The translations under genes were made by a program, and so were the position numbers. Under the pieces are notes generated by a model. It was not told the origin of the DNA and made no database searches. It saw only the letters and a program-made list of their open reading frames with translations. DNA of 64,000 nt from assembly GCA_030753015.1 (NCBI GenBank), contig JASMDC010000007.1, positions 32,001 through 96,000 of the forward strand. Reading direction: 5' to 3'. The stretch is from Candidatus Undinarchaeales archaeon (lineage in GTDB: Archaea > SpSt-1190 > JASMDC01). Numbering within the stretch: position 1 is the stretch's first letter; every line of letters begins with the position of its first letter. This document shows, in pieces, positions 6,718 through 45,800 of this stretch.

Positions 6718-6802
6718 GATTGTTCCTCCCGGTAGAATGACCTACCTAAATCTTAAAAGACTATTCCAAGACCGGGCGGGGCCCGGGTGGTGAGGTTCTA
6801 TC

Positions 6803-8425
6803 TCACCACCACAGGACGCCGTTATCGGTCACGATGTGCCGACCGAACGTCTCGCCGGACCTGCCGAAGCTTTCGAACTCGAAAGGCCGGTCGATCTTGT
6901 CCTCGGAGATGCGGGACAGGTCGGACCGGGCAAAGCCGCCCTCGCCGACGCTCATCTCGCTCACCAGCACCTCGGGGCCGACACCGCTCACCGGTGCCCA
7001 CTGCGCGGACCACCAGCCGCCCTTGCCGCAGAAGCCCACGAAGTTGTCCTCGGTGGCGTCGTCGCCCAGGGCCTCGATCTTGCCCAGGACGTCGAGCGAG
7101 TAGCCCGACACGGCCGCGGCGTCCACGGCGTACTGGATCTCGCCGTTCTCCACCCAGTAGGCCTCGGAGGCCTTGACGGCGAACTGCCCAGTGGAGGTGT
7201 AGACGTAGCCGCCGCTGGAGCCGACGATGTACAGACCGGTGCCCAGCTGAGCCAGAAGCTCCTCGTGGGTGTTCTCCCCGTTCTCCAGGATGGTGTTGCG
7301 CATCCGGGGCATGGGATCGTAGGAGCCGTCCTGGGAGCGACCGTTGCCGGTGACGCCCATGTCGATTCCCATCCGGTTCGCGAGCTCAACGGCAGTGTGC
7401 CTGTCGGTCATGAACCCGGTCACGGCGCCATTCTCCATGATGGTCAGGTCGTTGGCCTTCATCATCTCGTTGTCGTAGTAGATGTTGCCATGGCCTCCGG
7501 GGAACTGGGCTATCTCTTTGATCGTGACGAAGTCCGGCGCGATGACCTCGCCGTACTTCTGGCCCAGACGGCCGCCTTCCAGGACGGCATCTGCCTCGGC
7601 CATGTGGCCCACCATCTCGTGGATGAACACGCCGGTGACCTTGCCGCCGAACATCACGCGCACCTTCTCGCCGTCCTTGACGGGCATCTTGTGAGCGTTG
7701 TACTGGATGCGGGCCTTGTTGAGAGCGCTGTAAGCGGTGCCCTTGAGACCGTCGAGCACCAGTTCTGCGCCGGAGGTGGTGCCGATGGAGTCGAACCCGG
7801 TGACCACCGTCTCGACCTCGTTGCCCTCCTCGTCGGTGACCTTCTTGGTCAGCTCGATCTGGACCGCCAGGTGGCCGAGCATGCGCTCCTCGCACAGGTG
7901 GTTGTTCAGGTTGTCCTGGTAGTCGTCGGTGGTCTCGGTCAGGGTGTACTGCACCTTCACGGTCTTGATGTCGGGGTTGGCGGCCTTGATCTCGTCGGCG
8001 ATCTGCTTCATGTAATCCTTGACCTGCGTCTGGTACTGGTGGGGGTCCTTCTCGAACTCAGCTGCACGGTACACGGTGCCGATGGCGGGACCACGGGCGT
8101 AGATGTTGTCGAAGAACGCGTCGTCCTTGTCACCGGTGAGCCGTCCGATGGCCGAGTTGATGCCCTTCTCCACGGTGGACGCGTCGTGGCCGTAGAGCGT
8201 CTGGTAGTTCTCGGACGTGCCCCGACCGGCGAATATCTTACCGGTGGTGGCGCTTTGCGTGGTGACATCGGGCTCGTCGAACACCGGCATACCGGCGCCG
8301 ACCGCGCTCGTGGAATAGAGTATCTTCGTCTTGTTCTCGCTCTGGCGATAGACCGACAGGAAGTTGGCGTCGAAGCCGCCCAAGTCCAGCTCGTCCATCG
8401 GTCCCGTATAAAACTCTTCAAACAT
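6803..8425 (-). CDS. tldD: TldD-like metalloprotease
   Basis: HEMVGHMAEAD zinc motif, TGNGR, PMPRMRNT and CGK. Confidence 0.85.
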   Translation of the reverse strand: MFEEFYTGPMDELDLGGFDANFLSVYRQSENKTKILYSTSAVGAGMPVFDEPDVTTQSATTGKIFAGRGTSENYQTLYGHDASTVEKGINSAIGRLTGDKDDAFFDNIYARGPAIGTVYRAAEFEKDPHQYQTQVKDYMKQIADEIKAANPDIKTVKVQYTLTETTDDYQDNLNNHLCEERMLGHLAVQIELTKKVTDEEGNEVETVVTGFDSIGTTSGAELVLDGLKGTAYSALNKARIQYNAHKMPVKDGEKVRVMFGGKVTGVFIHEMVGHMAEADAVLEGGRLGQKYGEVIAPDFVTIKEIAQFPGGHGNIYYDNEMMKANDLTIMENGAVTGFMTDRHTAVELANRMGIDMGVTGNGRSQDGSYDPMPRMRNTILENGENTHEELLAQLGTGLYIVGSSGGYVYTSTGQFAVKASEAYWVENGEIQYAVDAAAVSGYSLDVLGKIEALGDDATEDNFVGFCGKGGWWSAQWAPVSGVGPEVLVSEMSVGEGGFARSDLSRISEDKIDRPFEFESFGRSGETFGRHIVTDNGVLWW

Positions 8426-8491: not shown

Positions 8492-9496
8492 GTGCGCATG
8501 TTCTTTCTCTTGTCAGGCGAGCATTATCCCCTCCCTCGTATGGAGCTCGAATCCTGCCTGGCGGCCGACGGCGTGCGCTGGCAAGAGGCCGGGTCGCTGG
8601 GCCGGGTGGCCCTGCTCGACCTCGACGGACCGCCGCCCACTCGCATGGGGCTGACGCCCGAGATCGGCGAGCTTGCGTGCACCGCCGACGACGCTGAGGG
8701 GCTGATCGCCGCCGTCACCGATTCCCCACTCGAGCTCGCAGGGAGCTTCGTGGTGCGTGCCTCCACCGTGCCCAAGGCCTTCGACTGTGGGGCCACCCGG
8801 CTCGAGCCGCGGCTGGGCGATGTCATCGGCGAGCGTACGGGAGCACCCGTCGACCTGCACGACCCGGACACCGTGCTCCGGGTGATCGCCACGCCCGAGG
8901 GTGCCGTGATGGGGCCGCGGGTACACCAGCGCGGGACGTTCGATGACCGCAAGTCCGACCGCAGACCGTACTTCCACCCGTCCAGCCTGGCCCCCAAGCT
9001 CGCCCGGGCCATGGTGAACCTCTCGGGCGCCCGGTCCCAAAAGACCCTGCTCGATCCGTTCTGCGGGACGGGGGGTATCCCCATCGAGGCCGCCATGGTC
9101 GGGTGCCGGGTGCTGGCGTCCGACATCGACCCCAAGATGGTGGCGGGCACCAAGGCCAACCTCGACCACCTGGACCTGGAGGCGTCCATGGCCACCGGCG
9201 ACGCGCGGCACGTGACCGAGTTGTTCGGCGAGGGCAGCGTGGACTGCATAGCGACCGATCCGCCCTATGGCAGGGCCGCGTCCACGTGGGGCGTCGGCCT
9301 CAAGGACCTGTTCTCCGAGGTGTTCCCGGCATTGTTCGCCGTGCTCCGGCCCGGCGGGTTGATGTGCATGGGCGCGCCGCAGCAGGTACCGCTGGAGACG
9401 CTGTGCCGTGACGTGGGGTTTAAGTATTTGCAGGGTGTCCGAATCCGCGTCCACGGGAGCCTGACCCGGCACATCTGCGTGGCGGAGCGTCCATGA
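8492..9496 (+). CDS. trm11: THUMP-domain tRNA m2G10 methyltransferase (Trm11/Trm-G10)
   Basis: LSGEH, RPYFHPSSL.PKLARAMVNL, DPFCGTGG, TDPPYGR and RVHGSLTR. Confidence 0.88.
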   Translation: MRMFFLLSGEHYPLPRMELESCLAADGVRWQEAGSLGRVALLDLDGPPPTRMGLTPEIGELACTADDAEGLIAAVTDSPLELAGSFVVRASTVPKAFDCGATRLEPRLGDVIGERTGAPVDLHDPDTVLRVIATPEGAVMGPRVHQRGTFDDRKSDRRPYFHPSSLAPKLARAMVNLSGARSQKTLLDPFCGTGGIPIEAAMVGCRVLASDIDPKMVAGTKANLDHLDLEASMATGDARHVTELFGEGSVDCIATDPPYGRAASTWGVGLKDLFSEVFPALFAVLRPGGLMCMGAPQQVPLETLCRDVGFKYLQGVRIRVHGSLTRHICVAERP

Positions 9497-11121: not shown

Positions 11122-11817
11122 ATGACCGCTCCCACCGTTGTGTTCGATGCGTCGCATGACGAGTACTTCTCCATCAGAAAGCGCGAGGATCCGTCGTACC
11201 GGCTCCTTGCCCGCCAGCTGGTGGCCGGTGGGATGGGCGTAAAGGAGGCCGGCGAGCTCGATGACGGGTTCGCGGGCGATGTGCTCGTCGTGGCGGTGCC
11301 GCGGAGGGCGTTCCAACCGGCCGAGAGCGCGGCCGTCCAGGAGTTCGTCAAGAACGGCGGCGGGCTCGTGCTCGTGGGGATGGGCGGCGGGCTCCACCAG
11401 AGCTCTCTAGTCCTCAACGCGCTGGCGTTCAGGTTCGGGATGGTGTTCGGCGAGGAGCTGCTGCACCACGATCCTGACCGGCTGAACGCGCTGCGCAAGG
11501 ACCAGGTCCACGCGGCCCATACCGTGCTCCTGCGCCACCCGGTGCTCGAGGGCGTGGGGACCGTGAGAGTGAGGTTCGGGTGCTCGGTGACCAGCGACGG
11601 GAACGCGCCGGTCTGGGTTGGCGACGAACCGCTCGAGGAGCGGTCCATGGCGGCGCTCGAGGCCGCACACTATTACCCCGTTCTCGCCCTCCAGGAGGAG
11701 GGCAAGGGCCGTGTCGTCGCCCTGGGCGACGCGTCCCTGCTCGACAGCCGCTACGTGCGCGGGAGCGCCCGGCTGGCGGGGAACATCATGACCTGGGCAG
11801 CAGGTGATACACCATGA
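11122..11817 (+). CDS. DUF4350/GldG-like (GATase-fold) protein
   Basis: VFDASHDE, FVKNGGGLVL and GKGRVVALGD. Confidence 0.7.
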   Translation: MTAPTVVFDASHDEYFSIRKREDPSYRLLARQLVAGGMGVKEAGELDDGFAGDVLVVAVPRRAFQPAESAAVQEFVKNGGGLVLVGMGGGLHQSSLVLNALAFRFGMVFGEELLHHDPDRLNALRKDQVHAAHTVLLRHPVLEGVGTVRVRFGCSVTSDGNAPVWVGDEPLEERSMAALEAAHYYPVLALQEEGKGRVVALGDASLLDSRYVRGSARLAGNIMTWAAGDTP

Positions 11818-21647: not shown

Positions 21648-21760
21648 TGGGGCGGTTGAAAAACACGGTGTTAGGGGTGATAGTGAGGGCGCTCACACCG
21701 CGCGAGTACCGGCACGCCGGCCTGCCGGCTTTCTTGACCCATGAGCGGCTAATCTCTACC

Positions 21761-22426
21761 ATGGCGCTTCCATGGGAGCACGGGGCCCGGCAGCCGTTCC
21801 TGGACCGGACCGATCCCTCCGATGTCCGCCGGGAGGCAGTGGCGCTTCCCCTGGCGCCCGGCCGGGTCACCGTGCTCCGACCCACCTCCTTCCCCGTGTC
21901 CCTGGCCCTGGCCAGGGCGGCGCTCGCGCCCGGGGGGGAGGTGCGGGCCGTTGTGGTCGACGGCGGTAACCGCTTCGATCCATCAGCCCTGGCGCGATGG
22001 GCACAGCACCTGGGCGCGCCGCCGCGGAGGGTGCTGGAGGCCGTGGCCGTGTCCCGGGCGTTCACCTGCCACCAGCTGGCCCGGCTCGTGACCGAAAGGC
22101 TGCCCCGGGAGCTGGCGGTCACCGGGGCGCGGCTGGTGGCGGTGCTGTCGCTGACCAGCTCGTTCACCGACGTGCCCGCACGGGAGGGCGTCGCCCTCTT
22201 CCGCCGCACCCTGGACGCCCTCGCCCGGGCGGTGCGTTACGCGAACGCCGCGTGCCTGGTCACCCTGGACCGGGAGCCCGAGGGGTACCTGGAACGACTG
22301 GCCCGGCGGCGTGCCGTGGCGTGCGCCGAACTGCTCCCGGGGCTGCGGCTCCAGCTGGAGGGAGGGCCTGCGGTGCCGCTGGGGGCGACACCCGCCCCCT
22401 TTCCCTGGGCTGTGGGTGGTGCCTGA
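21761..22426 (+). CDS. inactivated RadA/RecA-like protein of the PolB2 operon
   Basis: VVVDGGNRFDP and VSRAFTCHQL. No intact Walker A. Confidence 0.8.
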   Translation: MALPWEHGARQPFLDRTDPSDVRREAVALPLAPGRVTVLRPTSFPVSLALARAALAPGGEVRAVVVDGGNRFDPSALARWAQHLGAPPRRVLEAVAVSRAFTCHQLARLVTERLPRELAVTGARLVAVLSLTSSFTDVPAREGVALFRRTLDALARAVRYANAACLVTLDREPEGYLERLARRRAVACAELLPGLRLQLEGGPAVPLGATPAPFPWAVGGA

Positions 22427-22427
22427 C

Positions 22428-22706
22428 ATGGGCCGGACCGTGGCCACGTTCCGCCACCTGCTGGCAATCGAGGAGTCGCGCTGGCGCCCCTTCCGCGACG
22501 GGCTGCGGCGACGGGACCGGGAGGCCTTCGACCGGCTGTTCGACCTGGCCCGGGGCCACGCCGCTGCTGCCACCATGGCGGCCAGCCCGCTCGCCATGGA
22601 GCCGGTGGTGCTGGCGGTGCTCCTGGAGCACCAGAAGGCGCTCGAGCGGCTGACCGCGCGGCTGGCGGAGGTGGACGAGGGTGAGGGGGACCGGCTGGGT
22701 CCTTGA
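22428..22706 (+). CDS. small helical PolB2-associated protein (arCOG07300-like)
   Basis: MGRTVATFR...W.PFR..LRR.DREAFD.LF..AR.H, located directly before polB2. Confidence 0.85.
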   Translation: MGRTVATFRHLLAIEESRWRPFRDGLRRRDREAFDRLFDLARGHAAAATMAASPLAMEPVVLAVLLEHQKALERLTARLAEVDEGEGDRLGP

Positions 22707-24795
22707 CATCCACGCCGACGGGGGCGAGGTCGCCCTCTGGGTGAAGCGCGAGCGGGGCGGTACCGTCCGCCTCGCAGCATCCTACCGTCCTCCCTTCTAC
22801 GTGCTCCCGCGGACGCAGTCCCTGGACCGGCTCCTTCCCCGCCTGCGCCAGCTCCCCGGGGTGGGCCGGGTGACGACGGCACGGCGCTCGGACGTGTGGA
22901 CCGGAAGTGAGGCCGCAGTGGCCGAGGTCCATCCCGCCGATCCGGCACGGATGAAGGCGACGGCGGCCCGGGTCCGCGACGACGTGGGGACGGCGGGAGA
23001 GGTGTGCACCTGCGACGTGGCGCACGAGACGCGGTTCCTCATCGAGCGGGGGCTGTTCCCCCTGGCCAGGGTGCGCTTTGCGGCCGACGACGACGGGCGG
23101 TTGCGTGACGTGGCGCTCGACGGCGACGCTGCCGATGCCATGGAGTACCCGGTGCCCCGTCTTGAGGTCGTGGAGGTGTCCCGTGGTAGGAGCGCACGGG
23201 CGGCCTGCATCGGCCGGGACCCGGACGTGGTGATCACCCGGGGACCCTGCGCCGACCTCCATCTGGTGTCCCGTGAGCCCGTGGAGGCCGTGCGACGGCG
23301 CGCGCGTTCCTACGTCTCCTACGGACGAGTGGTGTACAAGCCGCCGTTCCAGCACCTGCACGGCCGCTGGCACGTTGATGGCGACCATTCCTTCTTCGTG
23401 CGCCGGTGCGGGCTGGAGGGGCTCATCGAGCTCTCCCGGCTCTCCTGCATCACCCCCCAGCGCATGGCTCATACCTCGCCGGGCACGGCCATCAGCGCCA
23501 TGGAGGTGGCCACGGCGCTGCGGCACGGGATGCTGGTGCCCTGGCGCAAGGGCGAGCCCGAGGCGTTCAAGACCGCCTGGCAGCTGGTGCAGGCCGACCG
23601 GGGTGGCCTGGTGCTGGAGCCGGTGCCGGGCGCCGTGGAGCAGGTGGCGGAGATGGACTTCGCCTCCATGTACCCCACCATCATGGACCACCACAACATC
23701 TCGCCCGAGACCGTCCAGTGCACGTGCTGCGGGGACGACGGTAGTGCGACGGTGCCCGTGCTGGGCTACCATCTGTGCAGCAAGCGGCGCGGACTGGTGC
23801 CCGAGACCATCGCACCGCTCTTGGAGCGGCGGCGGCACTACAAGCGACGAGCGCGGGCCACGCGCGGTGCGATGCGCGTGGGGTACGAGCGGCGGCAGCA
23901 GGCGCTCAAGTGGATGCTGGTGACGTGCTTCGGGTACCTGGGCTACCGCAACGCCCGTTTCGGCCGGATCGAGGCACACGAGTCGGTGACCGCCTTCGGC
24001 CGGGACAAGCTCGTGCGCGCGGCGCGCATGGCCGAGGAGGCGGGCTTCGCGGTGGTGCACGGCATAGTGGACTGCCTGTGGCTGCGGCACGAGGATGGGG
24101 ACACCCTCGCGGGGCGGGAGGACGAGCTCGCCGACCTCATGTCGTCCATCGGCAGCGCAGTGGACGTGGAGCTGGAGCTGGAGGGGGTGTACGGGTGGCT
24201 GGCCTTCTCCCCCTCGCGCCTCCACCCCGGGGTCGCGGCGGCCAACCGCTACTTCGGCAGGTACGTCACCGGAGAGCTCAAGGTACGTGGGATCGAGTCG
24301 CGACGCAGGGACGCGCCGGGTGTGGTGCGCCGGCTCCAGGCACGTATCCTGGGCATCCTTGCTGGCTGCCCCGACCTTGCCGCGGTGCGCGACTCCCTGC
24401 CCGGTGCCGTGGAGGTGGTGCGCCTGGCCGTGGACGGGGTGCGGGCCGGTGACGTCCGGTCCGATGAGCTGGAGGTGTGCACGGTAGTGTCCCGCTCCGA
24501 CTACCGCGGCCGCTCGCCGACGGCGGTCGTGGCCACGGCACTGCGCGACGAGGGCGTCGAGCTCCTCCCCGGCCAGAAGGTGCGGTACGTGTGGGGTGCC
24601 GAGGGCCGGCCCGTGCCCGCGAGCGAGGCCGACGGGTACGCCCACGACCGGTACACTGAGCTTCTAATCAGGAGCGCGGGGACCCTTTTAGCGCCCTTCG
24701 GGCTCCCTGCCGAGGCGCTCGCCCGGCGCCTGGCCCCCGGCGGCCATCAGCTTACCCTTGCCGCGTGCGTCGCGCGCAGAAGACGGGCGCGGTGA
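22681..24795 (+). CDS. polB2: family B DNA polymerase, PolB2 type
   Basis: DFASMYPTIM, ALKWMLVTCFGYLG, degenerate motif C HGIVDC, NRYFG and KVRGIE. Exonuclease domain eroded. Confidence 0.9.
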   Translation: MRGTGWVLDIHADGGEVALWVKRERGGTVRLAASYRPPFYVLPRTQSLDRLLPRLRQLPGVGRVTTARRSDVWTGSEAAVAEVHPADPARMKATAARVRDDVGTAGEVCTCDVAHETRFLIERGLFPLARVRFAADDDGRLRDVALDGDAADAMEYPVPRLEVVEVSRGRSARAACIGRDPDVVITRGPCADLHLVSREPVEAVRRRARSYVSYGRVVYKPPFQHLHGRWHVDGDHSFFVRRCGLEGLIELSRLSCITPQRMAHTSPGTAISAMEVATALRHGMLVPWRKGEPEAFKTAWQLVQADRGGLVLEPVPGAVEQVAEMDFASMYPTIMDHHNISPETVQCTCCGDDGSATVPVLGYHLCSKRRGLVPETIAPLLERRRHYKRRARATRGAMRVGYERRQQALKWMLVTCFGYLGYRNARFGRIEAHESVTAFGRDKLVRAARMAEEAGFAVVHGIVDCLWLRHEDGDTLAGREDELADLMSSIGSAVDVELELEGVYGWLAFSPSRLHPGVAAANRYFGRYVTGELKVRGIESRRRDAPGVVRRLQARILGILAGCPDLAAVRDSLPGAVEVVRLAVDGVRAGDVRSDELEVCTVVSRSDYRGRSPTAVVATALRDEGVELLPGQKVRYVWGAEGRPVPASEADGYAHDRYTELLIRSAGTLLAPFGLPAEALARRLAPGGHQLTLAACVARRRRAR

Positions 24796-24846
24796 GCACT
24801 TGTAATGTCAGGCACGTATATATGCTATCCACACCATGACCCTTCT

Positions 24847-24954
24847 GAGGAAAATGGCAAACACGCCTCCCGGGGGGACGACAAAGGATGGGTCTCTCGT
24901 TTTTTTTCTGACCATCCTTGGCTGCCACCACCGCCCCCCGGGCCTCTTTCTCCC
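24847..24954 (+). ncRNA. putative ncRNA, copy 1 of tandem triplet
   Basis: TATA at 24817. Stems CCCGGGGGG/CCCCCCGGG and AAGGAUGG/CCAUCCUU. GCUGCCACC at 24921. Confidence 0.6.
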
Positions 24955-25015
24955 TTAACTTCTATCGGAAAGATGCCTTCGGAAGGTATTTATGCTATAC
25001 ACGACTAAATAGTAT

Positions 25016-25137
25016 GGGGGGAATGATGGTCATTCTTCCCCCGGGGGACGGGATGGAAGGTTCACCTAATAATAGAATAATAGCACTTCTTAGTCTTCCT
25101 TTGGCTGCCACCTCCGCCCCCCGGCACTATTCTCCCC
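25016..25137 (+). ncRNA. putative ncRNA, copy 2 of tandem triplet
   Basis: TATA at 24987. Closing stem GGGGGGAAU/AUUCUCCCC, hairpin GAAUGA/UCAUUC (alternative to the closing stem), long stem, GCUGCCACC at 25104. Confidence 0.65.
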
Positions 25138-25184
25138 GTTCCTGATCCGAAAGGTAAATAGGCCATCCACACCTGATTAAGGAC

Positions 25185-25297
25185 CGGGGGGAACGGGAAC
25201 CCAGTTCCTATGCTCTCCTGGGGGGCGGGATGGGGAAGTGCTGCCTATTTCTGTTTACGCTTTCTCGCTGCCACCCCCGCTCCCCGAACCTTCCCTG
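25185..25297 (+). ncRNA. putative ncRNA, copy 3 of tandem triplet
   Basis: CGAAAGGTAAATA promoter at 25148-25160. Hairpin GGAAC/GUUCC, stem GGGGGGCGGG/CCCGCUCCCC, GCUGCCACC at 25267. Confidence 0.65.
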
Positions 25298-25314
25298 ACC
25301 CAGAAGAACATGCA

Positions 25315-26451
25315 CTAGGCACGTTCATCGAGCAGGTCGGCGGCGGCCTCGAGGTCGAGCACGCGGTACTCGATTGTGAGGCTCTGCCAGGGGCGGAGGA
25401 CGTTGCTCGCTGCCTCGTGGCCCGAGGAAAGGAGCACCTCCTTGATCTCGTCGTTGGACAGTCCGTTGTACTGGGACTTGATGGCCGCCACGGCACCCGC
25501 CACCAGGGGTGCGGACATGGACGTGCCCGTCCATGTCGTGTAGCCGCCGGGGACCGGGGAGAGGATGTCCACGCCGGGCGCGACGATGTCGAAACCGAGG
25601 TTCGTGGAATTGTACAGGCGGTCCTTGTCCTCCCATGATGCGCCCGCGGTGAACACGTCGGGGCAGGAGCCGGGCGACGTCCTGCTGAGACCAGTCGCCG
25701 GATCGGCCGTCTCCCGGGCGTTGCCGGCGGACGCCACGAGGAACACTCCCGCGTCGTACACACGTGAGCATGCCTCGTTGATGAGGCGGTCCACTTCGGC
25801 CTTGGGCCGTCCCTCGAAGTCCTCTGCGGTCTCCATGCCGAAGGACATGTTGACTACGTCCATCCCGTCCGCCACGGCCTTGTCGAGTCCGCGCAGTGCG
25901 ACCGAGAACCCGTCATCGCCTTTGCCCGTGACGACCTTGTAGCTGTACAGCTCGGCCTCGGGCGCGATGGTGTGGACGATACCGGCGACGTGCGTGCCGT
26001 GGCCGTGGTCGTCGTACGGGTCGGGTTTGTCGTAGACGAGGTCGGTGAACCCGCGGTAGGCGTCGATGAGGTAGGGGTGGGACGCGTCGATGCCCATGTC
26101 GAGGATGCCCACCTTCACACCTTCACCGGTGAGCCCCCGGGCGTTCGCCTCGGCGGCGTGCACACGCCGGTAGCCCCAACCCTGGGCCACGTCCTGTGGT
26201 CCGACGCCAGTGGCGAGCTCGTAGGGCCGGTCGCTGTGCGTGATGGTGATCGCGCGTTCGTCACCGTAACAGGTGATGACCCCAGCTGTCCGGAGGTCGG
26301 CGAGCTCCCTGGCATCGGCATCCATAACGAGTGCGGCGTTCAGTGACGTGTACGCCTCCTCGACGGCGAGACCATGGGACGCGAGATCGTACGCGCCATG
26401 ACCCTGCTCCAAGAACACGACAGTGCGCTCGACACCTGCAAGCTCCACCAT
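25315..26451 (-). CDS. subtilisin-like S8 serine protease (no signal peptide)
   Basis: Triad GILDMGID, HGHGTHVAG and GTSMSAP. Oxyanion SAGN. Confidence 0.93.
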   Translation of the reverse strand: MVELAGVERTVVFLEQGHGAYDLASHGLAVEEAYTSLNAALVMDADARELADLRTAGVITCYGDERAITITHSDRPYELATGVGPQDVAQGWGYRRVHAAEANARGLTGEGVKVGILDMGIDASHPYLIDAYRGFTDLVYDKPDPYDDHGHGTHVAGIVHTIAPEAELYSYKVVTGKGDDGFSVALRGLDKAVADGMDVVNMSFGMETAEDFEGRPKAEVDRLINEACSRVYDAGVFLVASAGNARETADPATGLSRTSPGSCPDVFTAGASWEDKDRLYNSTNLGFDIVAPGVDILSPVPGGYTTWTGTSMSAPLVAGAVAAIKSQYNGLSNDEIKEVLLSSGHEAASNVLRPWQSLTIEYRVLDLEAAADLLDERA

Positions 26452-26521: not shown

Positions 26522-27706
26522 TTACTCGGTGTCCTCGAGCAGGTCGGCTGCCGCCTCGAGGTTGAGCACCTTGTACTCCTGGAGACCGTGGTAGTAGGTG
26601 TTGTGGCTAGCGTCGTCGGCCGAGGCGATGAGCGCGTCCTTGATCTCGTCGTTGGACAGGTCGCTGTACTTGGATTTGACGGCCGCAACGGCACCCACCA
26701 CGAACGGGCAGGCCATGGACGTGCCGTCCCATGTTGCGTACCTGTCCCCGGGGATCGAGGAGAGGACCCGCGCACCGGGTGCCGAGATGTCGAACCCGAG
26801 GTTTGTGAAGTACGCCAGCTTGTCGTTGTACTTGCTCATGGCGCCTACAGCGAAGACGTCCGGCCCCGACGCGGGAGCGGACCTGCTGCGGCCGGAGGCC
26901 GGGTCGGCGGCCTGGCCGTCGTTGCCGGCAGCCGCCACGAGGAACACGCCCGAGTCGTACGCACGCGAGCAGGCCTCGTTGAGTATGCGGTCGCCTTCCT
27001 CCTTGGAGTATCCCTCGCGTTCCTCGTCGGTGTCCAGACCGAAGGACATGTTCACCACGTCCATACCGTCCTGTACTATGGTGTCCAGGCCGCGGAGGAT
27101 GTCCGAGATGCGGTTGGCGCCATGCGACATATGGAGCTTGTAGCCGTACAGCTCCACCTTGGGAGCGACGGTCTTGACGATCCCGCCGCAGTGGGTGCCG
27201 TGACCGTGGTCATCGTACGGATCGGGCTTGCCGTAGGGCAGGTCGGTGAACCCGGCGTAGTTGTCCTTGAGGTACTCGTGGTCCGCGTCGATGCCGGTGT
27301 CGAAGATGGCGACCTTGACACCAGCGCCGTCCAGACCCTTGGTGTTGGCCTGGGCCGAGCGCACCCGGAGGTAACCCCAGTCGTTGGGGACGTCGCGTGC
27401 CTCGGGCTGATCGCCGGTGTCGTACGGATCAGGGGAGATGCTGCCGGGGCCGTGTGTTCCCTTGTTGTACGGACCGCGGGTCTCGTCGGAGATGGTCACC
27501 TCATGGTCCTCGGCGTAGTCCGAGACCACACCCACCAGCTGCAGCGTGGCCAGCTCCCGCGCGTCAGCTCCGGTCACTATCGCAGCGCCCAGACCGGCGT
27601 AGGACTCTTCCACCTGTATGCCGTAGGACTCGAGCTCCTCGGTGGCGTTGCCGCCGTAGGACCTGTCGAAGAAAACGATCGTACGCTCACTGCTCTCAAT
27701 ATCCAT
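26522..27706 (-). CDS. subtilisin-like S8 serine protease, tandem paralog
   Basis: AIFDTGID, HGHGTHCGG and GTSMACP. Start ATG 27706 chosen by alignment with the paralog. Confidence 0.93.
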   Translation of the reverse strand: MDIESSERTIVFFDRSYGGNATEELESYGIQVEESYAGLGAAIVTGADARELATLQLVGVVSDYAEDHEVTISDETRGPYNKGTHGPGSISPDPYDTGDQPEARDVPNDWGYLRVRSAQANTKGLDGAGVKVAIFDTGIDADHEYLKDNYAGFTDLPYGKPDPYDDHGHGTHCGGIVKTVAPKVELYGYKLHMSHGANRISDILRGLDTIVQDGMDVVNMSFGLDTDEEREGYSKEEGDRILNEACSRAYDSGVFLVAAAGNDGQAADPASGRSRSAPASGPDVFAVGAMSKYNDKLAYFTNLGFDISAPGARVLSSIPGDRYATWDGTSMACPFVVGAVAAVKSKYSDLSNDEIKDALIASADDASHNTYYHGLQEYKVLNLEAAADLLEDTE

Positions 27707-27829
27707 CCCGTACACCCATGGGGACCACTGTCCCCTCAAGTGATATCTAGCGGGGTCGCCGGAATATAAACCTTCGGTCTTCGGCAAGTGGAGGACTCGC
27801 GGCCGGACCGGTCGCGAGGCAAAACTTCA

Positions 27830-38565: not shown

Positions 38566-39806
38566 GACGGGGGACTGGAAACGCACAATCCGAGCGTTTG
38601 TTAGTACGTCTCTTAAAGAGAGTGAACGAGGATGAGAAGGGCATACAAGTTCAGGCTGTATCCGAACAGGGAGCAGACTGGCCGTCTGGAGCGGACGCTG
38701 GAAACGTGCCGTATCCTCTACAACGAACTCCTTGCAGAGAGAAAGGTGACTTACGAGGTGACGGGGGGTGGGATTAGTTACTTCGAGCAAAAACGCAATC
38801 TAGTCAAGATGAAGAAGGTGAACGATCATCTGGCACAGGTTAACGCACAGGTGTTGCAGGACGTCACCCGTCGTATCAAGAGATCGTTCGACGCATTCTT
38901 CCGCAGGATCAGGGACGGGAAAAAACCGGGGTATCCGAGGTTCAAAGGGAGGGGGCGGTACAAGTCCTTCACCTACCCCCAGCATGTGAAGAGTTTCAAG
39001 ATCAAGAGCGGGCGGCTTTCCCTCTCGAAGATAGGCGAGGTGCGTATGTTCCAGCATCGTCCCATCGAGGGAGTCATCAAGATGTGCACGCTTAAGCGGG
39101 ACGACATCGGCGACTGGTCAGTCATCATCGTATCAGAGCTGAAGGACACTCCGAAGATAGCCATCGAAGAGACGATCGGCGTTGACGTCGGGCTGAAGAA
39201 CCTGGCTGTCGCTTCTGACGGATTGATCCTCGAGCCTCCCACATGCCTCCGTGGCTCGGAGAAGAAGCTCGCGAAGCTCCAACGGCGGCTGAGCCGGAAG
39301 ACGAAGGGAAGCAAGAACCGAGAGAAGGCACGGGCCAAAGTGGCTAGACACCATCGGAAGATCGCAAGACAGAGACGAGACCATCTGCACAAGGCCTCAC
39401 GCTGCCTTGTCGATTCTGCTGATCGCATTGTCTTTGAGAACCTTAATATCAACGGGATGCTCACAAACCATCATCTTTCCAAGTCGATAGCAGACGCGTC
39501 CTGGGGGACGCTCATCCAGTTTACGATGTGCAAGGCTGAGAGTGCCGGCAAGTCGGTCGAACTGGTACCCCCCAGGAACACGTCACAGCTATGTTCACAA
39601 TGCGGCGCGTTCGTAAGGAAGTCCCTGTCCATGAGGACGCACAGATGTCCCGAGTGCGGGCTCGTGATGGACAGGGATCTGAATGCCGCCATCAATATAC
39701 GGGACAAGTTCACCCTCGGGCAGAGGGGTAGGGCCTGTGGAGCCGTCTCCGTTGGGAGGGGCGATGAAGCAGGAAGCTCACCGAATTATCGGTGAGAGGA
39801 TGTCAC
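38566..39806 (+). mobile_element. IS200/IS605-family (IS1341-like, tnpB only) element
   Basis: tnpB plus right-end hairpin GAAG-CTCACCGA/TCGGTGAG ending in TCAC at 39806. Left end inferred after TTAA 38562-38565. Confidence 0.75.
38632..39795 (+). CDS. tnpB: TnpB RNA-guided endonuclease
   Basis: AYKFRLYP HTH, RuvC GVDVG / FENL / DRDLNAA all intact, CSQC..CPEC zinc finger. Confidence 0.96.
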   Translation: MRRAYKFRLYPNREQTGRLERTLETCRILYNELLAERKVTYEVTGGGISYFEQKRNLVKMKKVNDHLAQVNAQVLQDVTRRIKRSFDAFFRRIRDGKKPGYPRFKGRGRYKSFTYPQHVKSFKIKSGRLSLSKIGEVRMFQHRPIEGVIKMCTLKRDDIGDWSVIIVSELKDTPKIAIEETIGVDVGLKNLAVASDGLILEPPTCLRGSEKKLAKLQRRLSRKTKGSKNREKARAKVARHHRKIARQRRDHLHKASRCLVDSADRIVFENLNINGMLTNHHLSKSIADASWGTLIQFTMCKAESAGKSVELVPPRNTSQLCSQCGAFVRKSLSMRTHRCPECGLVMDRDLNAAINIRDKFTLGQRGRACGAVSVGRGDEAGSSPNYR

Positions 39807-42800
39807 GTAACGACCCGCAACGAGTAGGTGATGGGGCTGGTGGCCGTCATGTCGAAGGTGATGACACCGCTCTCCTCCTCGCGGTCGGCATTCCAGAGGC
39901 CGTTCTGCCACTCGACGGTCAGGCCATGGACCTCCACATGGGCCCTGTAGCGTCGCGCCGGAGCGATGGCCCGCTTGAGCTCGTCAGGCGTGGTCTCCAG
40001 GGTTGCCTGGCCGTACCCGAGGGACGCGGTCTTCTCACGGGCTTCGATGGTGATGGTGTCCTTGTACCCCAGGGGCGTTGCGAGCACCGCTTCGCCGTTG
40101 TCGAAGGACACGCCGCTCGTAGCGATCGTGGTCCTCGAGCCCAGGTCGAAGGGCAGCCGCTCCACGGACTTCCGACCGATGTTCTGGTAGGTGATCGTCC
40201 AGGTGCGGGTCCGCTTCAGGTCGCGCTTCAGGATGTCCTTGATGGCGACGTCCGTGATGGTGACCGGCCTCGCCCGCAGGGTGGCGGTGATGCCTACCAT
40301 GTCGCTAAAGCACTGGTCGTCGTTGAGCGTCTCCTCACCCTCGCCGTACGCGCAGGTCTCGCTCCACTGGGCCCAGTCAGGGTTCCACTCGTTCTCCCGT
40401 GTACTTGCGGTGGCGAAGCTCGTCCGGTTGAGGGACATGCCGTTGGCCAGGGTGAGCTGGACGTTGTAGGAGCGGAAGAACTCCGGTGTGGAGAAGCCCG
40501 TCTTGATGGTCGTCTCGAGATCGGTTAGCTGGGTCTCGCCCTTCAGCTCGACGTACACGGAACGCTCCTCGCCGATGAACACCGGTGTCTTGAACGACAC
40601 GGTGATGATGGAGCCACCGTTGGGGGCTGAATAGGTGCTCTCGGTGTAGTCCTCACGATTCTGGGGGATGAGGGTCAGCCCGGACTGGTCGATGACAAAG
40701 GACATGGCCTCCACGGGTGTCTCCTGACGGTTGACCATGGACAGGTCCATGGTGTACGTCAGGGCGACGGTCTCGTCCTCGGGCGCGCCCACATTGATGG
40801 AGAGGCTGGGCCTGACGAAGAGCTCACGCTCCGTGATGTCCACATGCGTCATCGCGGTGGCGGGCGCGTCGGGTAGAACGGCCGCGAGCACCAGGCCCGC
40901 GACAAGGCACACCAGTATCATGGCGTTCAGTCCGGCACCGCCGCCGCCCTTGCCGCTGCGGAACATCGACATGGCGAAGAGGGCAGCGATGACGAATGCG
41001 ACGGCCAGCAGTGTCTTGAGCTGGGGTATGCCGTCCGGGCCCGGCGGGACGCCGGACGCCTCGTCGAGCATGCCGTTGATCTCCTGGATGAGCGACTTCG
41101 CCTTGTCGTGGTCGCCGGCCTTCACAGCAGCATCGAGCATCCTGCTCAGGTCCGAGATACGGGAGCGGACCTCGGAATCCTCGATGCTCGCGGCCTCGCT
41201 GTCGATGGTGGCCATGGCGTTCCGGTAGTAGGCCTCCCGGGCAGCGGGGTTCTCGGGGATGTCCACTGTCGGCCGCGGTGTGGCGGCAGCGGTGGGCTTC
41301 GGTGTGGCATCGGTCGTCGGACCGGGCGTGGTCACGGGCCTGGCCGTCGGCTGCGGATCCTCGACGACGACGCCTTCTGCGTAGGGCAGCTCCACAACGT
41401 GCACAGGTTCCGGCTCGGGGGCATCCTGGCCGATGGATAGCACGACCTCGTCAGCGAAGCCCTCGTTCTCGGGCGTGAACTGCGGATAGGCACGTGTTCC
41501 GGCGGCCTGTACACGGCCCTCGGAAGTGGCGGCCAGCTCGTACCACAGGCCCACGTCGCTGGTGTGGTCGAGGAACCATACGATCTTGTCGGCCTTGACT
41601 ATGACCTTGCGCACCGACCCGCCCTCGTCGGCGTACCCGGTCACGGTGAAACCGGGCGGGATTGGCTCCTCCACTACAACGAAGTGCTGGTGGACGCCCG
41701 AGGTGACGGTGATGGATACATTGACGTTGTCCCCGGGATCAGGGACGGTGGTGTCGTAGGTGCGGAGCACGACGATGTCCTCGCCGCGGACCAGCACGAC
41801 ACCCACCGGTTCGGACGACACCATACCATCATCAGTGAACGCGACGGCGGCGTCGAGCTTGTACTTCCCGGGCTCGCCGTAGAGCTCGTAGGTGACCGAG
41901 GTGCTGCCCCGGGCAGCGAGGTCCACGGGCCAGTGCAGCGCGAGGTCGGGATCCTTGTCCTCTGATCCGGCCGCGGTCAGTCCTGCGGGCACGAAGTCGT
42001 AGAGGTCGCCTGTCACGGGATCGTTCCCGGTATTGTGGACCACGAGGGTCACGTGCACCCGGTCCCTGCCGGCGGTGGCGAAGGAGGCGCTCTTGGATAC
42101 GGTGAGCGCCGGGCCCGTACCGGCTGGCTGGGTGTCGGTGAGCACCGGGAGCTCCCAACTCTCGAACTGTTTTCCGCCGACCTTGGTACCGCGGGCCAGG
42201 CCGTACTCGGCCTTGGCCGTCCCCAGCTCCAGCCGGTCGACGGCGCGGTCGGTGACGTAGTAGAGCTCGAAGGTCCGCGGCTCGGGAAGGCTGTCAACGT
42301 AGAGCCGGCGCGTGGGCCGCACCTCGACGCCGTCGGGCACGGGCAGCTCGATGCTGATGCGCGCGGGCACCGCCACGTCGGCGTGGGGGGTGAGGGTCAT
42401 CTTAACAGGGTACACACCCGGTGAGGCGGGCTCGCCCACCTCGAACGCAGCGGTCACGTTTCCGCCCAGAGTGGCCGTGGACCACACGTCGTAGAACAGC
42501 TTACCCTTCCCGCGACGCACGATACGGATGGTGTTCTCGCCATGGCGCAGGTAGTCAGTGAGGCGCAGCTCGCCCGACATGCCCCAGATACCCTCGAGAT
42601 GGACCGAGTCGATCCGCTCGCCGTTCACGTACAGCTCGACGTTCATATCGGGGATGACCGGGGGTTCGATCTCCAGCAGCCGCAGGTGAGCGGCCAGGGA
42701 GGCGATCTGGTCGGCAGTGGTGGTGAACTCCCAGGGATTGCGCTCGCGCAGCCACTTCAGCGCGGCCTTCGCGGTGTCGCGGTAGGCGGGCTGCTCCAGA

Positions 42801-45800
42801 AGCGCCATCGCTGCCTGCGCTGTGGTCTCGTCGGGCCCGCCCAGCGAATACCCGCGGCTCCAAAAGATATAGGGATCGTCCTCCTTGAGCAGGGAGAGCA
42901 GCTTGTTCACAACAGCCCGCTCGTCGCCCTGGGCGTCGCGTGTGTGCGAGAGCAGTCGGGCGTACAGAGCGATTGTGTAGGGATCTGTGATCTCGCCAGC
43001 GATCCACTTCTGGTGCAGGAAGTTCATACCCTCGCCGGGGACGGACTGGCCCGCCTCGGCCAGGGAGATGAGCACATAGGCCGTCATCCCGGCATCGTTG
43101 CCGGTGAGCCACTGGGTGCCATTGTAGGAGCCGTCGCCGTTGGCGTGGTTGGTCAGCCAGTTCACGGCGCCGTAGACCATCGAATCGTCCACGAGCACGT
43201 GGCGCTTGGCAGTGGAGAGCGCCCGGAGGGCGTAGGCGGTCATGTACGTGGTCGAAGGGCCCTTCTTCCACCAGCCCCAGCCGCCGTCGGCGTGGCGCAT
43301 GAACACAAGCTCAAGGGCAAGGCCACGGACCCGCTCCTTGAACCAGCGGTCGCTGGTGATGAGCTTGAGCTTGGCGCGGTACTCGTGGGAGAGTACCGTG
43401 GGGATGATCTTGGATGCGGTGACCTCGGTGGTCGGATAGGAGTACCCGTCCACCCGGGCCGAGCCGGTATAGATGGACAGCGACTCGGAGCCGAACCGGG
43501 CGTACCCGCGCACGGAGATGTCGTAGGCCTCCTTGGGCACGTTGATGGTGAACGTCACCTCCTTCTTGTCGGTGTCACCGGACACGGTCTCCTCCCAGGG
43601 CACACCGTTGGGTCGGACCCAGATGCGGTTCTGGACACCATCGGTGAGCTCGGTCCCGTCGGAAGTGGAGGCAGTGGCGAAGAAGGTGAGGTTCTGGTAG
43701 AAGGGCGTGCGGGCCCGCAGGCGCCAGGAGACGGACTGCGGGATGTCCTTGTGGAGGGTGAATGTGGCGGCGTTGGGAGTGAACAGGTCGAACCACTCCT
43801 CCTCCTTGAGACCGGCGAGCGCGTCGAGGTCGCCATCCAGGTAGCTGTGCACGGTCATCTGCATGGTCGTATTGTCGCCCTGTGTGAGCGAGGCGGGGAA
43901 GTAGGGCTTGATGAAGAACTCCTTTTGCGAGACGAAATCAGTGGCGTTCTCCGCGTACCGCGCGTCCATGGTGGACGCGTACACGGCCGCCTTCCAGGTG
44001 GTGAGCGAGTCGGGGACCATCACGGTGGTGGTGAATGTGCCGTCCTCACCGGTGAGGGCGAACGGCTCCCACAGGAATGTCTCGGGGAACATGGTGCGCA
44101 TCTGCACCGTCGCCAGCACATCCGCGGTCTCGCCGGCGCTCAGGGACATGGCCTTGGACTCCTTTGCCATCATCATGCCCTCGTCCGCCATGTCGGCGCT
44201 GGCGAAGCCCGCCTCCATCTCCATGGCGGGGGCGGCCCTCGGTGCCCCGGGCAGGGCCATACTGCCGCCTGCCAGCGCGCGTCCCTTGTTGCGCTGCATG
44301 TAATCGCCGCGGTCCCAGTTGACGCGGGCGGGATTGGCGCTGCTCGACTCCAGCTTTGTGGGGTCGTTGACGGGTGTACCGTACATCCGTCGCATGTTCA
44401 TGTTGCTCTGGAAGTTGGCGTTCGAGGTGATGGACCAGGAGCGGGAGAGTGGCCGCGACACGACGTCACCGCGCTCGGACGCATCGATGACCGACTGGTC
44501 GACGACCTTCACGCCCACGGCAGCGTTCGGTACGGGCCGGCCCTCCTTGTCGGTGACCGTTACTGTGAGGGTGAGCTCGTCGCGGGGCTCGTACACCTCG
44601 CGGTCGACGCTGATGGTGGTCCTCAGCCCCTTGAGCTTGAGTCGGGCCTGGCCACCTAACGGGTACGTGATCCCGTTGGTGCCGACAGCGAACACGGCCA
44701 GTCCCACTCCACCGAGGTCGTCCTCGGTCGTTGGGATGCTCACCGTGAAGTTACCGCCGTCGCCCACATTGCGAACCACGGTCCGCAGGGGGATATTGCG
44801 CATGTAGTGGCGCTCTATGATGACGGCATCGGGAGCGAATCCCTCGAACTGATGGACGAACCGCGCCTCGTCACCCGGCTCCACCTCTTGGGTGAGGGTC
44901 CACAGCCGTGCGGTACGGATGGTGCCGAGCACTACCGGGCGCTGGACGGTCAGGGTGAGCCCCCGGTCGTACCCTGTCTCCTCGTTGAAGCCGATGGTGG
45001 CCGTGGCGGATATCGCGTAGAGGCCCTCGGGATGATGGGGGACGGGGACGCCGATGGTCTCGGTCCCGTCGGAGGACGTTTGTATATGGATGCCGACCGA
45101 CTGCCCTGCCATGGGGCCGTTGAACGACCAGCGCATGTCATCGTCCTTGACCGGCTCACCGGTGAGGGCGTCGGTGAGCGTGAGCTCGGCAACGACCTTC
45201 TCCCCCTCAAGCCGTGGTGTAAGGGTGAGCTCGTACTTGCCCGAGACGGCCTGGCCGAACGCGCCCCAGGCGCGCCCGTACCGGTCCACGACTCCCAGCT
45301 CGCCCTCAAGGTACATGTACTTCAGGGCGACATCACGGGACACTGTGAAGTCCTGCTCGACCTTCGAACCGGTGGTGGGATCGAGTGTGAGGTCGGTGAT
45401 CTCCTCGGGCTTACCGTCAGGGGGGACGCCCGTGAGATCCATCGTCATTGATCGGAGGTTCGACGCGTCAGTGCCCTTGCTCGTAGCCGTCAGATGGAGC
45501 GTCTCGTTCCCCGGGTAGTAGGTCATGGCGACGCTCACGGTCACCTCGGGAGCGAGCTTGGCGCTCTTGGAGAGGTCCACGGTACGGCCCGCGGGATCGG
45601 TGATATGGGCCTCGACCACGATGTGGGTGCCTTTCAGCTCCTCCAGCGGTACCTCGAAGGAGCCCACGCCGTCGGTGTCGGTGGTGAGGTTGATGCGCTT
45701 GTAGACCTGGAGCTTGACAAGGTCCGGGCCGCCGCCCCGGGGCGACACCATCCCGGGGTAGGCCATCTCCTTGGCCATCATGGGCTCGTAGTAGTCCATC

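Follow-up and report, generated by a model that had tools for sequence, protein, structure and literature searches.

What occupies the gap between a DNA polymerase gene and a convergent protease gene in an uncultured marine archaeon? The 64-kb window analysed here, positions 32001-96000 of contig C95, comes from a metagenome-assembled genome of 3.85 Mb, 60% guanine plus cytosine (GC) and 117 contigs, referred to below as G000. In this window 519 nt separate a family B DNA polymerase (PolB) open reading frame (ORF) from a convergent subtilase ORF, and positions 24811-25312 hold three diverged units of about 170 nt each, arranged head to tail. Comparison with another member of the genus, a distinct species whose 3.6-Mb genome (G001) served as the sister genome, indicates that the units belong to a new, conserved, non-coding and genus-restricted family of predicted small RNAs (sRNAs), the kind itself being familiar. 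At the level of annotation the elements are conserved and non-coding, and the RNA genes are predicted. We document here the repeat, its conservation, its lack of coding capacity, the lack of an Rfam match and a census of the family, and weigh what the units might do. Coordinates are those of the window unless a contig is named.

Results

Three tandem units share one order of parts

A repeat search recovers two direct repeats in the intergenic region, each in three copies. One is a promoter block, GG(C/A)A(C/G)GTAT(A/T)TATGCTAT(C/A)CAC, with spacings of 170 and 168 nt; the other is a 31-nt motif plus 3' arm block, (T/C)T(G/C)GCTGCCACCNCCGC(C/T)CCCCG..., with spacings of 183 and 163 nt. Mean column identity among the three units is 67%. 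Each unit has an element resembling a B recognition element (BRE) and TATA box, followed about 30 nt later by a GC-clamped hairpin of 105-125 nt with the invariant GCTGCCACC. The TATA-like boxes are TATATATG at 24817, TATTTATG at 24987 and TAAATA at 25155, and GCTGCCACC starts at 24921, 25104 and 25267. The original prediction had described three diverged units about 170 bp apart, each with its own TATA box; its coordinates and quoted strings are all present in the sequence, and the arrangement is confirmed by the two repeat families and by retention of the units in G001.

Unit 1 begins with a promoter-like element on the + strand (24811..24824), BRE-like GGCACG plus TATATATG, followed by GCTATCCAC. 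The element belongs to the three-copy repeat, and 31 of the 36 columns of the unit 1 promoter region (24811-24846) are the same in G001. The predicted RNA of about 107 nt (24847..24953, +) has its ends placed from the conservation block and the TATA spacing. It folds at -42.9 kcal/mol, with a dinucleotide-shuffle z of -2.6 on the + strand, and scores 85.1 bits with the covariance model R1, built from 8 sequences with 17 pairs. A 5' hairpin (24847-24869) leads into a lower stem, CCCGGGGGG/CCCCCCGGG (24869-24880/24931-24942), and an upper stem, AAGGATGG/CCATCCTT (24884-24891/24912-24919). The apical loop includes a run of eight T residues (24900-24907), GCTGCCACC occupies 24921-24929, and a pyrimidine tail follows at 24943-24953.

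The unit 2 promoter-like element (24981..24994, +) consists of GGAAGG and TATTTATG and is also a copy of the three-copy repeat; 24 of the 33 columns of its promoter region (24981-25013) are the same in G001. The predicted RNA, about 125 nt at 25014..25138 (+), includes an inverted repeat, folds at -44.3 kcal/mol (z -0.7) and scores 72.4 bits with R1. Its 5' hairpin lies at 25016-25042, the lower stem, CCGGGGGACGG/CCGCCCCCCGG with one A.C mismatch, at 25041-25051/25114-25124, and the upper stem, GGAAGG/TCTTCC, at 25055-25060/25094-25099. The apical loop is AU-rich and 33 nt long, and the motif is at 25104-25112.

For unit 3, the third copy of the promoter repeat (25149..25162, +) combines GAAAGG with TAAATAGG, and 26 of the 35 columns of the promoter region (25149-25183) are the same in G001. 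The predicted RNA of about 115 nt (25184..25298, +) folds at -47.3 on the + strand (z -0.9) and -39.2 on the - strand, and scores 72.5 bits with R1. Its parts are a 5' hairpin (25186-25218), a lower stem, GGGGGGCGGG/CCCGCTCCCC with one G.U (25220-25229/25276-25285), an upper stem, GGGGAAGTG/CGCTTTCTC (25232-25240/25258-25266), and the motif (25267-25275).

The units are conserved and non-coding

All three units are present in G001 between the same flanking genes. Mean column identity over the whole intergenic region is 88%, and the differences are unevenly distributed. The predicted RNAs are 78-92% identical (100/109, 91/116 and 90/107 columns for units 1, 2 and 3), whereas the spacers between units are 38-48% identical (13/27 and 8/21 columns). 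Within the units, the 5' arms of the lower stems are identical in 38 of 38 columns and the motif plus 3' arm in 66 of 71. The conservation blocks start 29-33 nt past the TATA-like boxes, each of which has a BRE-like purine-rich hexamer on its 5' side, and stop just past the lower stem and a short pyrimidine tail. This extent is the pattern expected of a promoter followed by a small transcribed element. No sequence variants of the locus were found in contigs from four DNA runs, and no RNA run is listed as containing the stretch.

Six-frame translation reveals no conserved ORF; no frame is open across any unit in both G000 and G001, and indels of 1, 7 and 1 nt separate the orthologous units. The original prediction had named conservation of a peptide frame, LAAT.APR, as a finding that would refute it. 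Units 2 and 3 of G000 are indeed open in a frame that reads LAAT(S/P)APR, and some of the differences among paralogues are synonymous in it. However, unit 1 of G000 has a TGA two codons before the TTG of that frame, and in G001 the unit 1 start ATG is ACG and a TAG is present, a 7-nt deletion in unit 2 leads to a TAG, and unit 3 has lost its ATG. With every candidate frame broken by indels or stops in the orthologues, a small-protein gene is refuted, and the proposal that the units encode LAAT.APR peptides is barely credible. Because the units are far better conserved than the spacers and no frame is conserved, the units are selected, non-coding elements. The likeliest reading is that each is a small RNA gene in its own right, on the + strand.

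Members are found in two species of one genus

With the seven closest copies as query, nhmmer finds four copies in the 3.85 Mb of G000 at E<1e-17; the next match has an E value of 0.24. The covariance model R1 identifies five members in G000, namely units 1-3 at 72-85 bits, a fourth on the 1636-bp contig C115 (64 bits) and a fifth at C29:30070-30153 on the minus strand (58 bits). In G001 it identifies four, namely the orthologues of units 1-3 and that of the C29 copy, at C4:158030-158113. R1 matches two of the 17 genomes of the phylum and two of 151 relatives, in both cases G000 and G001, and there are no members in the other 15 phylum genomes or the other 149 relatives searched. The search of relatives that had been suggested along with the original prediction thus restricts the family to these two species among the 151.

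An exact-pattern scan of metagenome contigs yields 11 loci, two of which (L177 and L183) are true members, both of them copies of the C115 element. Viral contigs contain 17 loci with the 19-nt pattern and no true member, the best scoring 24.6 bits compared with at least 58 bits for true members. More diverged relatives, found by eye and by regular expression, are two further units of C115 (C115b and C115c), a locus at C48:~9245-9360 with its orthologue on contig C18 of G001, and one on contig C6 of G001; C21, C23 and C26:524 may hold others. The flanks of the family copies share no sequence.

A dispersed mobile repeat, such as a miniature inverted-repeat transposable element, was considered and rejected, since there are only four nhmmer copies (five by covariance model) in 3.85 Mb and their flanks are unrelated.

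The claim that these are paralogous non-coding RNAs is supported: the units are kept while the spacers drift, no frame is conserved, Rfam offers no match, and diverged members exist at other loci. The functional part of the original prediction, a protein decoy or antisense guide, gained no support.

Predicted secondary structure

The clear members of the family begin with a GC-rich 5' hairpin, free in sequence and length, which is followed directly by a lower stem of 9-11 bp pairing a G run, GGGGG(G/A)CGG, with a C run, CCGC(C/U)CCCC. The internal loop has a 5' strand of 2-6 nt and a 3' strand of 10-14 nt, (U)UGGCUGCCACCN, which is identical across paralogues. The upper stem is 5-9 bp long and its sequence differs by paralogue (AAGGAUGG/CCAUCCUU; GGAAGG/(U/C)CUUCC; GGGGAAG(U/C)G/CGCUU(U/C)CUC; GGAAG/CUUCC). 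The apical loop is free, at 12-33 nt, and the 3' tail is pyrimidine-rich or U-rich. The only invariant single-stranded stretch is (G)GCUGCCACC, with the core UGCCACC, on the 3' strand of the internal loop.

In a model-fitted alignment of nine members, 82.8% of 145 cells pair, compared with 48-63% once the partner is displaced by 1-3 columns. Between the G000 and G001 orthologues, 17 of the 282 predicted paired columns are variable, as are 63 of the 266 unpaired ones. All 16 variable pairs still pair, 15 of them via G.U, although this evidence is circular in part, the consensus structure having come from these two sequences. The unit 2 5' hairpin, for example, changes from GGGGGGA/UUCCCCC in G000 to GGGGAGA/UCUCCCC in G001 with pairing retained, and in unit 3 all six variable pairs stay paired via G.U or G.C changes. 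The lower stem hardly varies, so covariation is uninformative there either way. The proposed fold is therefore best described as plausible, not proven.

Two structural claims of the original prediction stand in part. The predicted pairing between the purine-rich 5' and pyrimidine-rich 3' ends occurs in the minimum-energy folds of unit 1 (4 bp) and of unit 2 of G000, while unit 3 and the G001 orthologue of unit 2 prefer a local 5' hairpin. Display of the motif in a loop applies to most members but not all: the predicted unpaired probability of UGCCACC exceeds the mean of its own RNA in 9 of 12 intact motif copies. An alternative helix, GAUGG/CCACC, that would extend the lower stem was rejected, since about half of its cells pair, no more than in shuffles.

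Probable promoters and strand

The unlinked C29 member and its C4 orthologue have a TATA spacing of 30 nt. In this pair the TATA region is conserved, the 23 nt between TATA and hairpin are not, and a T5 tract follows the lower stem. No TATA-like box is found on the other side of unit 3 or of the C29 copy. Unit 3 and the C29/C4 pair fold much better on the + strand, and pairwise consensus folds favour that strand only in total (-198 vs -179 kcal/mol). Folding energy as a means of assigning the strand is not decisive. The position of the BRE-like hexamers, the constant spacing, the one-sided TATA-like boxes of unit 3 and C29, the T5 ends and the folding of unit 3 and C29/C4 together favour the + strand. 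A scan for bacterial-type promoters and terminators gave no sites, the scan being designed for bacteria and not for archaea.

The units match no known RNA family

Rfam 15 has no match at gathering threshold in the 64-kb window. For positions 24780-25330 (551 nt), relaxing the threshold to E<=10 gives only four microRNA-precursor matches at chance level (15-17 bits, E 3.5-7.4, gathering scores 58-100), and the five loci with other family members have no match at E<=0.1. ARAGORN finds no tRNA or tmRNA gene in 24000-26000. Conserved boxes mark a C/D box sRNA, with box C (RUGAUGA) towards the 5' end and box D (CUGA) towards the 3' end. Of the three units, unit 2 alone carries candidates, AUGAUGG close to the 5' end and CUGA at 25142; its G001 orthologue reads GUGAGUG and has no CUGA. 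The earlier observation that the units lack tRNA, C/D and H/ACA hallmarks is upheld by ARAGORN, by inspection of boxes and pockets, and by Rfam.

Copies of the motif and possible partners

GCUGCCACC is invariant in eight of the nine members aligned to the covariance model, the exception being the C29 copy of G000, which has GCUGCCAGU. The C29/C4 RNA has a second motif in its 5' hairpin loop, where GUGUGCCACCCG is the same in both species and the surrounding stem has changed. The internal-loop motif of C115c is degenerate (GCUGUCCUUA), but UGCCACC is present in the 5' leader. The C48/C18 RNA carries the motif twice, as UGCCACC and UGCCACU in G000 and as UGCCGCC and UGCCACC in G001. Since the first copy is intact in G000 and the second in G001, each species keeps one perfect copy. 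C115b contains the exact complement, GGUGGCA, twice, both times in predicted hairpin loops, and the 5' hairpin loop of unit 1 contains UGGCA.

The C48 element is located between an ATP-grasp ORF and a convergent PAS/DUF835/HTH gene and has no TATA box of its own. A perfect 10-bp GC hairpin follows directly after the TAG of the ATP-grasp ORF (C48:~9247-9360; L185:2248-2360; G001 L136:1519-1630). Across about 117 columns the C48/C18 RNA differs between the species at 3, an identity of 97%, versus a mean of 87% over the 311-column alignment, in which the differences fall mostly in the flanks. This element may be a 3' untranslated region (3'-UTR) element or a bidirectional terminator. Gene neighbours at the four chromosomal loci of the family are unrelated (PolB/subtilase, Obg-like GTPase/thiamine pyrophosphate enzyme, ATP-grasp/PAS-HTH).

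The original prediction had offered, as a speculative target, a site just before the 530 loop of 16S rRNA. No rRNA is assembled in G000, and complementarity was evaluated on the small subunit (SSU) and large subunit (LSU) rRNAs of G001. The sole near-complement in the 16S rRNA is GGTGCCAGCC at position 448, before the 530 loop, where the proposed target would read GGTGGCAGCC, so that a duplex with the motif would have a central C.C mismatch. The LSU rRNA has no complement of GGCUGCCACC with at most one mismatch, and SSU and LSU together hold one such site. A match of this quality arises in 25% of shuffles, so the 16S site is at chance level and the proposal did not survive.

Three other candidate roles for the motif were rejected. 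Targeting of ribosome-binding sites fails because GGTGGCA is no different in frequency at gene starts from other GGTGGNN words, and a general intergenic signal fails because the word is not enriched in low-GC DNA. A 12-nt complement that abuts an ATG at C62:37738, in a putative ribosome-binding site, has lost both the complement and the ATG in G001. No candidate protein partner for the motif RNAs was found. Literature searches gave no archaeal or relevant match to GCUGCCACC among the matches listed, and nothing relevant on archaeal tandem sRNA paralogues.

Genomic setting

The upstream flank is the 704-aa PolB ORF (22681..24795, +; PF00136 DNA_pol_B, E 9e-26), which is co-oriented with the RNA units. 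The downstream flank is a 378-aa subtilase (25315..26451, -; PF00082 Peptidase_S8, E 7.5e-43), convergent with them, and unit 3 ends 17 nt from its stop codon. The PolB region (22001-24000) has 72.8% GC against 60% genome-wide, and a small Rad51/RadA-like ORF (21656-22426, +) lies just 5' of PolB. A second subtilase is found near the locus at 26522-27787, and a 2500-aa ORF with alpha-2-macroglobulin domains (MG2, A2M, bait region, TED) occupies 39803-47305 (-). None of the 20 window ORFs scanned encodes Orc1/Cdc6, an integrase or a transposase. A replication-origin or mobile-element context was rejected for that reason and because GC skew does not turn at the locus. The two genomes of the genus, at 3.6-3.85 Mb, contrast in size with 15 others of the same phylum and class, at 0.6-1.2 Mb; given this contrast, their taxonomic placement may merit re-examination.

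A small element with related units, and cassette-like repeats

The first and last 77 nt of contig C115 (L002, 1-1636) are identical, a circular or tandem signature with a unit of 1559 bp. It contains three sRNA-like units in an AT-rich part (C115a, C115b and C115c) and one GC-rich part, with no convincing ORF and no replication gene. Two unrelated metagenome contigs (L177 and L183) carry the element at 97-99% identity, one of them with a terminal repeat of 80 nt.

A GC-rich segment of about 150 nt, with the internal inverted repeat AAGGCCTTCT...AGAAGGCC and ends ATAAC...GTT(A/G)T, recurs in G000. Its sites are C26:289-345 and 701-880, C53:~11226-11290, C87:~1173-1237, C82:~6728-6848, C29:~180254, and C115:1-90 and 1502-1636, several of them near contig ends. 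In C26:1-1500 the segment alternates with AT-rich segments of about 400 nt carrying small ORFs, a layout that looks like a cassette array with attC-like sites. The integron-integrase model TIGR02249 matches at C31:32-841 and 1483-2295, C76:933-1742 and C53:13580-13801. It does so in two pieces (model positions 2-181 and 233-315) with summed scores of 222-240 bits, below the 265-bit cut-off. On C53, some 2.3 kb separate the integrase-like ORF from a copy of the GC-rich repeat. Integrons of archaea have been published (PMC9668308).

The sibling unit with GGUGGCA loops raises the idea of a two-sided RNA network, in which chromosomal sRNAs with UGCCACC (units 1-3, C29 and C48) would engage C115b in kissing-loop cross-talk. 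We regard this as a long shot. If true, the host and a mobile element of cassette or mini-circle type would be joined in mutual titration, copy control or addiction, a new kind of system for Archaea.

Discussion

Resemblance to known small RNAs

The closest parallel in logic may be the multi-copy bacterial sRNAs that share one seed. Qrr1-5 of Vibrio and the tandem Pxr paralogues of Myxococcus are reportedly multi-copy, trans-acting RNAs with an identical seed. The predicted units resemble them in being several paralogous genes of about 100 nt with their own putative promoters, some in tandem and in a narrow taxon, that drift outside one invariant single-stranded stretch. The units differ in their archaeal host and BRE/TATA promoters, in having no Hfq-type module and no known targets, and in the position of the invariant stretch, which is in the internal loop of a long GC-clamped hairpin instead of a single-stranded 5' region; neither their sequences nor Rfam links the two groups.

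Two other systems share single features with the family. The archaeal sRNA154 of Methanosarcina mazei reportedly has the same motif in more than one loop, as the C29/C4 and C48/C18 members have; it shows no sequence similarity to them, and the present units are predicted from DNA and have no known regulon. Small replicons control plasmid copy number with sense/antisense RNA pairs that interact loop to loop. C115 likewise holds motif units (C115a and C115c) and a complement unit (C115b, with GGUGGCA in two hairpin loops), but the complementary loops are on separate, non-overlapping genes, and C115, which has no replication gene, is only a putative replicon.

What the units may do

We propose that the three units are separate genes for small structured non-coding RNAs of about 105-125 nt, all of one young family that would have arisen at this locus by tandem duplication. 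Each, with its own BRE/TATA promoter, would give a + strand transcript in the form of a GC-clamped rod, a scaffold that would serve to present the UGCCACC motif. The RNAs would then act in trans through the motif, most likely by base pairing with GGUGGCA-type sites on other RNAs. This account is possible, and we hold it tentatively. Several results weigh against it. We infer transcription, strand, RNA ends, fold and trans-acting role alike. Units 2 and 3 fold no better than their dinucleotide shuffles, the minus strand gives units 1 and 2 slightly stronger folds, and the pairwise consensus folds of unit 1 and C48 also favour that strand. The covariation analysis suggested at the outset gave no significant support from nine sequences: the score is 0.196 against 0.172 when shuffled, 78 of 500 column shuffles reach it, and there are 3 double-change pairs where 3.6 are expected. 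The run of eight T residues in the apical loop of unit 1 (24900-24907; seven in G001) is another difficulty, for it is a likely archaeal termination signal and should halt the polymerase short of the motif, so that unit 1 may yield a truncated product or a pair of isoforms. As to targets, GGTGGCA stands beside 17 of 663 long-ORF starts (2.6%), within the 1.4-4.7% of 15 other GGTGGNN words, and low-GC DNA shows no enrichment of the word, with 50 occurrences where the median is 43 (rank 69 of 210). No target was found, the sole 12-nt complement, on C62, not being kept in G001.

If the units are transcribed, they could instead be protein ligands, a decoy, sponge or scaffold that offers the UGCCACC loop on a GC-clamped helix. 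The lack of a conserved complementary target fits this proposal, as do the invariance of the motif amid drift, its varied places (internal loop, hairpin loop, 5' leader) and the members with two copies, at least one of them intact per species; several redundant gene copies would suit titration. However, no candidate protein was found, the four chromosomal loci have nothing in common in their gene neighbours, one or two motifs per RNA are few compared with the many sites reported for sponge RNAs of the Csr/Rsm type, and no K-turn-like G.A/A.G arrangement for L7Ae can be seen by eye. We lean slightly towards base pairing and away from protein binding, since the loops of the sibling RNA C115b contain exact complements, and a protein ligand seems unlikely, though not negligibly so. 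Guide RNAs of an atypical H/ACA type would use the internal loop as a pseudouridylation pocket for one rRNA or tRNA site. Archaeal H/ACA sRNAs are likewise small, have a hairpin-internal loop-hairpin shape with a lower stem of about 9-11 bp, and can be multi-hairpin or clustered. They also have an ACA (ANA) box just past the 3' arm of the lower stem, at a distance of about 14-16 nt from the pocket's top, and a kink-turn or kink-loop, with tandem G.A pairs that form the L7Ae site, in the upper stem or apical loop. In the units the loop 3' strand plus stem measures about 21-25 nt, and the sequences after the lower stems, CCUCUUUCUCC, CACUAUUCUCC and AACCUUCCCUG, contain no ACA or ANA there. By eye no conserved GA/GA arrangement is seen at the upper stems, and no two units resemble each other in their apical loops. 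The internal loop is strongly asymmetric, with a 5' strand of just 2-6 nt, and its long strand is invariant among paralogues where a guide should be target-specific. With no Rfam H/ACA match and no significant complement in SSU and LSU rRNA, this explanation is disfavoured as very unlikely.

Two further explanations would dispense with trans-acting RNAs. The units might be cis elements, either 3'-UTR or terminator modules of PolB or antisense or read-through barriers for the subtilase. All three lie directly 3' of PolB in the same orientation, each is a GC-rich stem followed by a pyrimidine-rich or U-rich tail, and unit 3 stops just short of the subtilase; the C48 member, directly after the ATP-grasp TAG and with no TATA of its own, and the C29 member, likewise 3' of a same-strand gene, agree with such a role. 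Yet each unit has its own conserved BRE/TATA-like element at promoter distance, a terminator in three copies would be superfluous, each locus has different host genes, and a plain terminator needs no invariant 9-mer in a loop. We consider the cis role improbable. Alternatively, the units might act as DNA, for example as folded single-strand recombination sites, protein-binding repeats or cassette-associated sequences that yield no stable RNA. Covariation does not single out RNA, both strands fold about equally well, related units occur on the 1.56-kb C115 contig with its circular or tandem signature, and further copies of the GC-rich inverted-repeat segment of C115 are found at several contig ends, in the vicinity of tyrosine-recombinase ORFs that resemble integron integrases. 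That segment, however, differs in sequence from the units. The distance between the G and C arms varies from about 50 to 63 nt with free intervening sequence, which is unsuited to a protein site, and 15 of the 16 variable pairs change via G.U on the + strand, which in DNA or on the other strand would be A.C mismatches. Together with TATA elements at promoter spacing, these features make a DNA-level role quite improbable. Separate + strand sRNA genes that act by base pairing remain the account we prefer, at modest confidence.

Significance

To our knowledge few archaeal regulatory RNA families have been defined beyond model species, and none is known for this sparsely sampled marine lineage. 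If the units are transcribed, they would represent a young sRNA family caught in the act of duplicating, with three tandem copies, unlinked copies and copies on a possibly mobile element. The single invariant motif, exposed in the predicted fold, would provide a direct handle for finding the partner of these RNAs.

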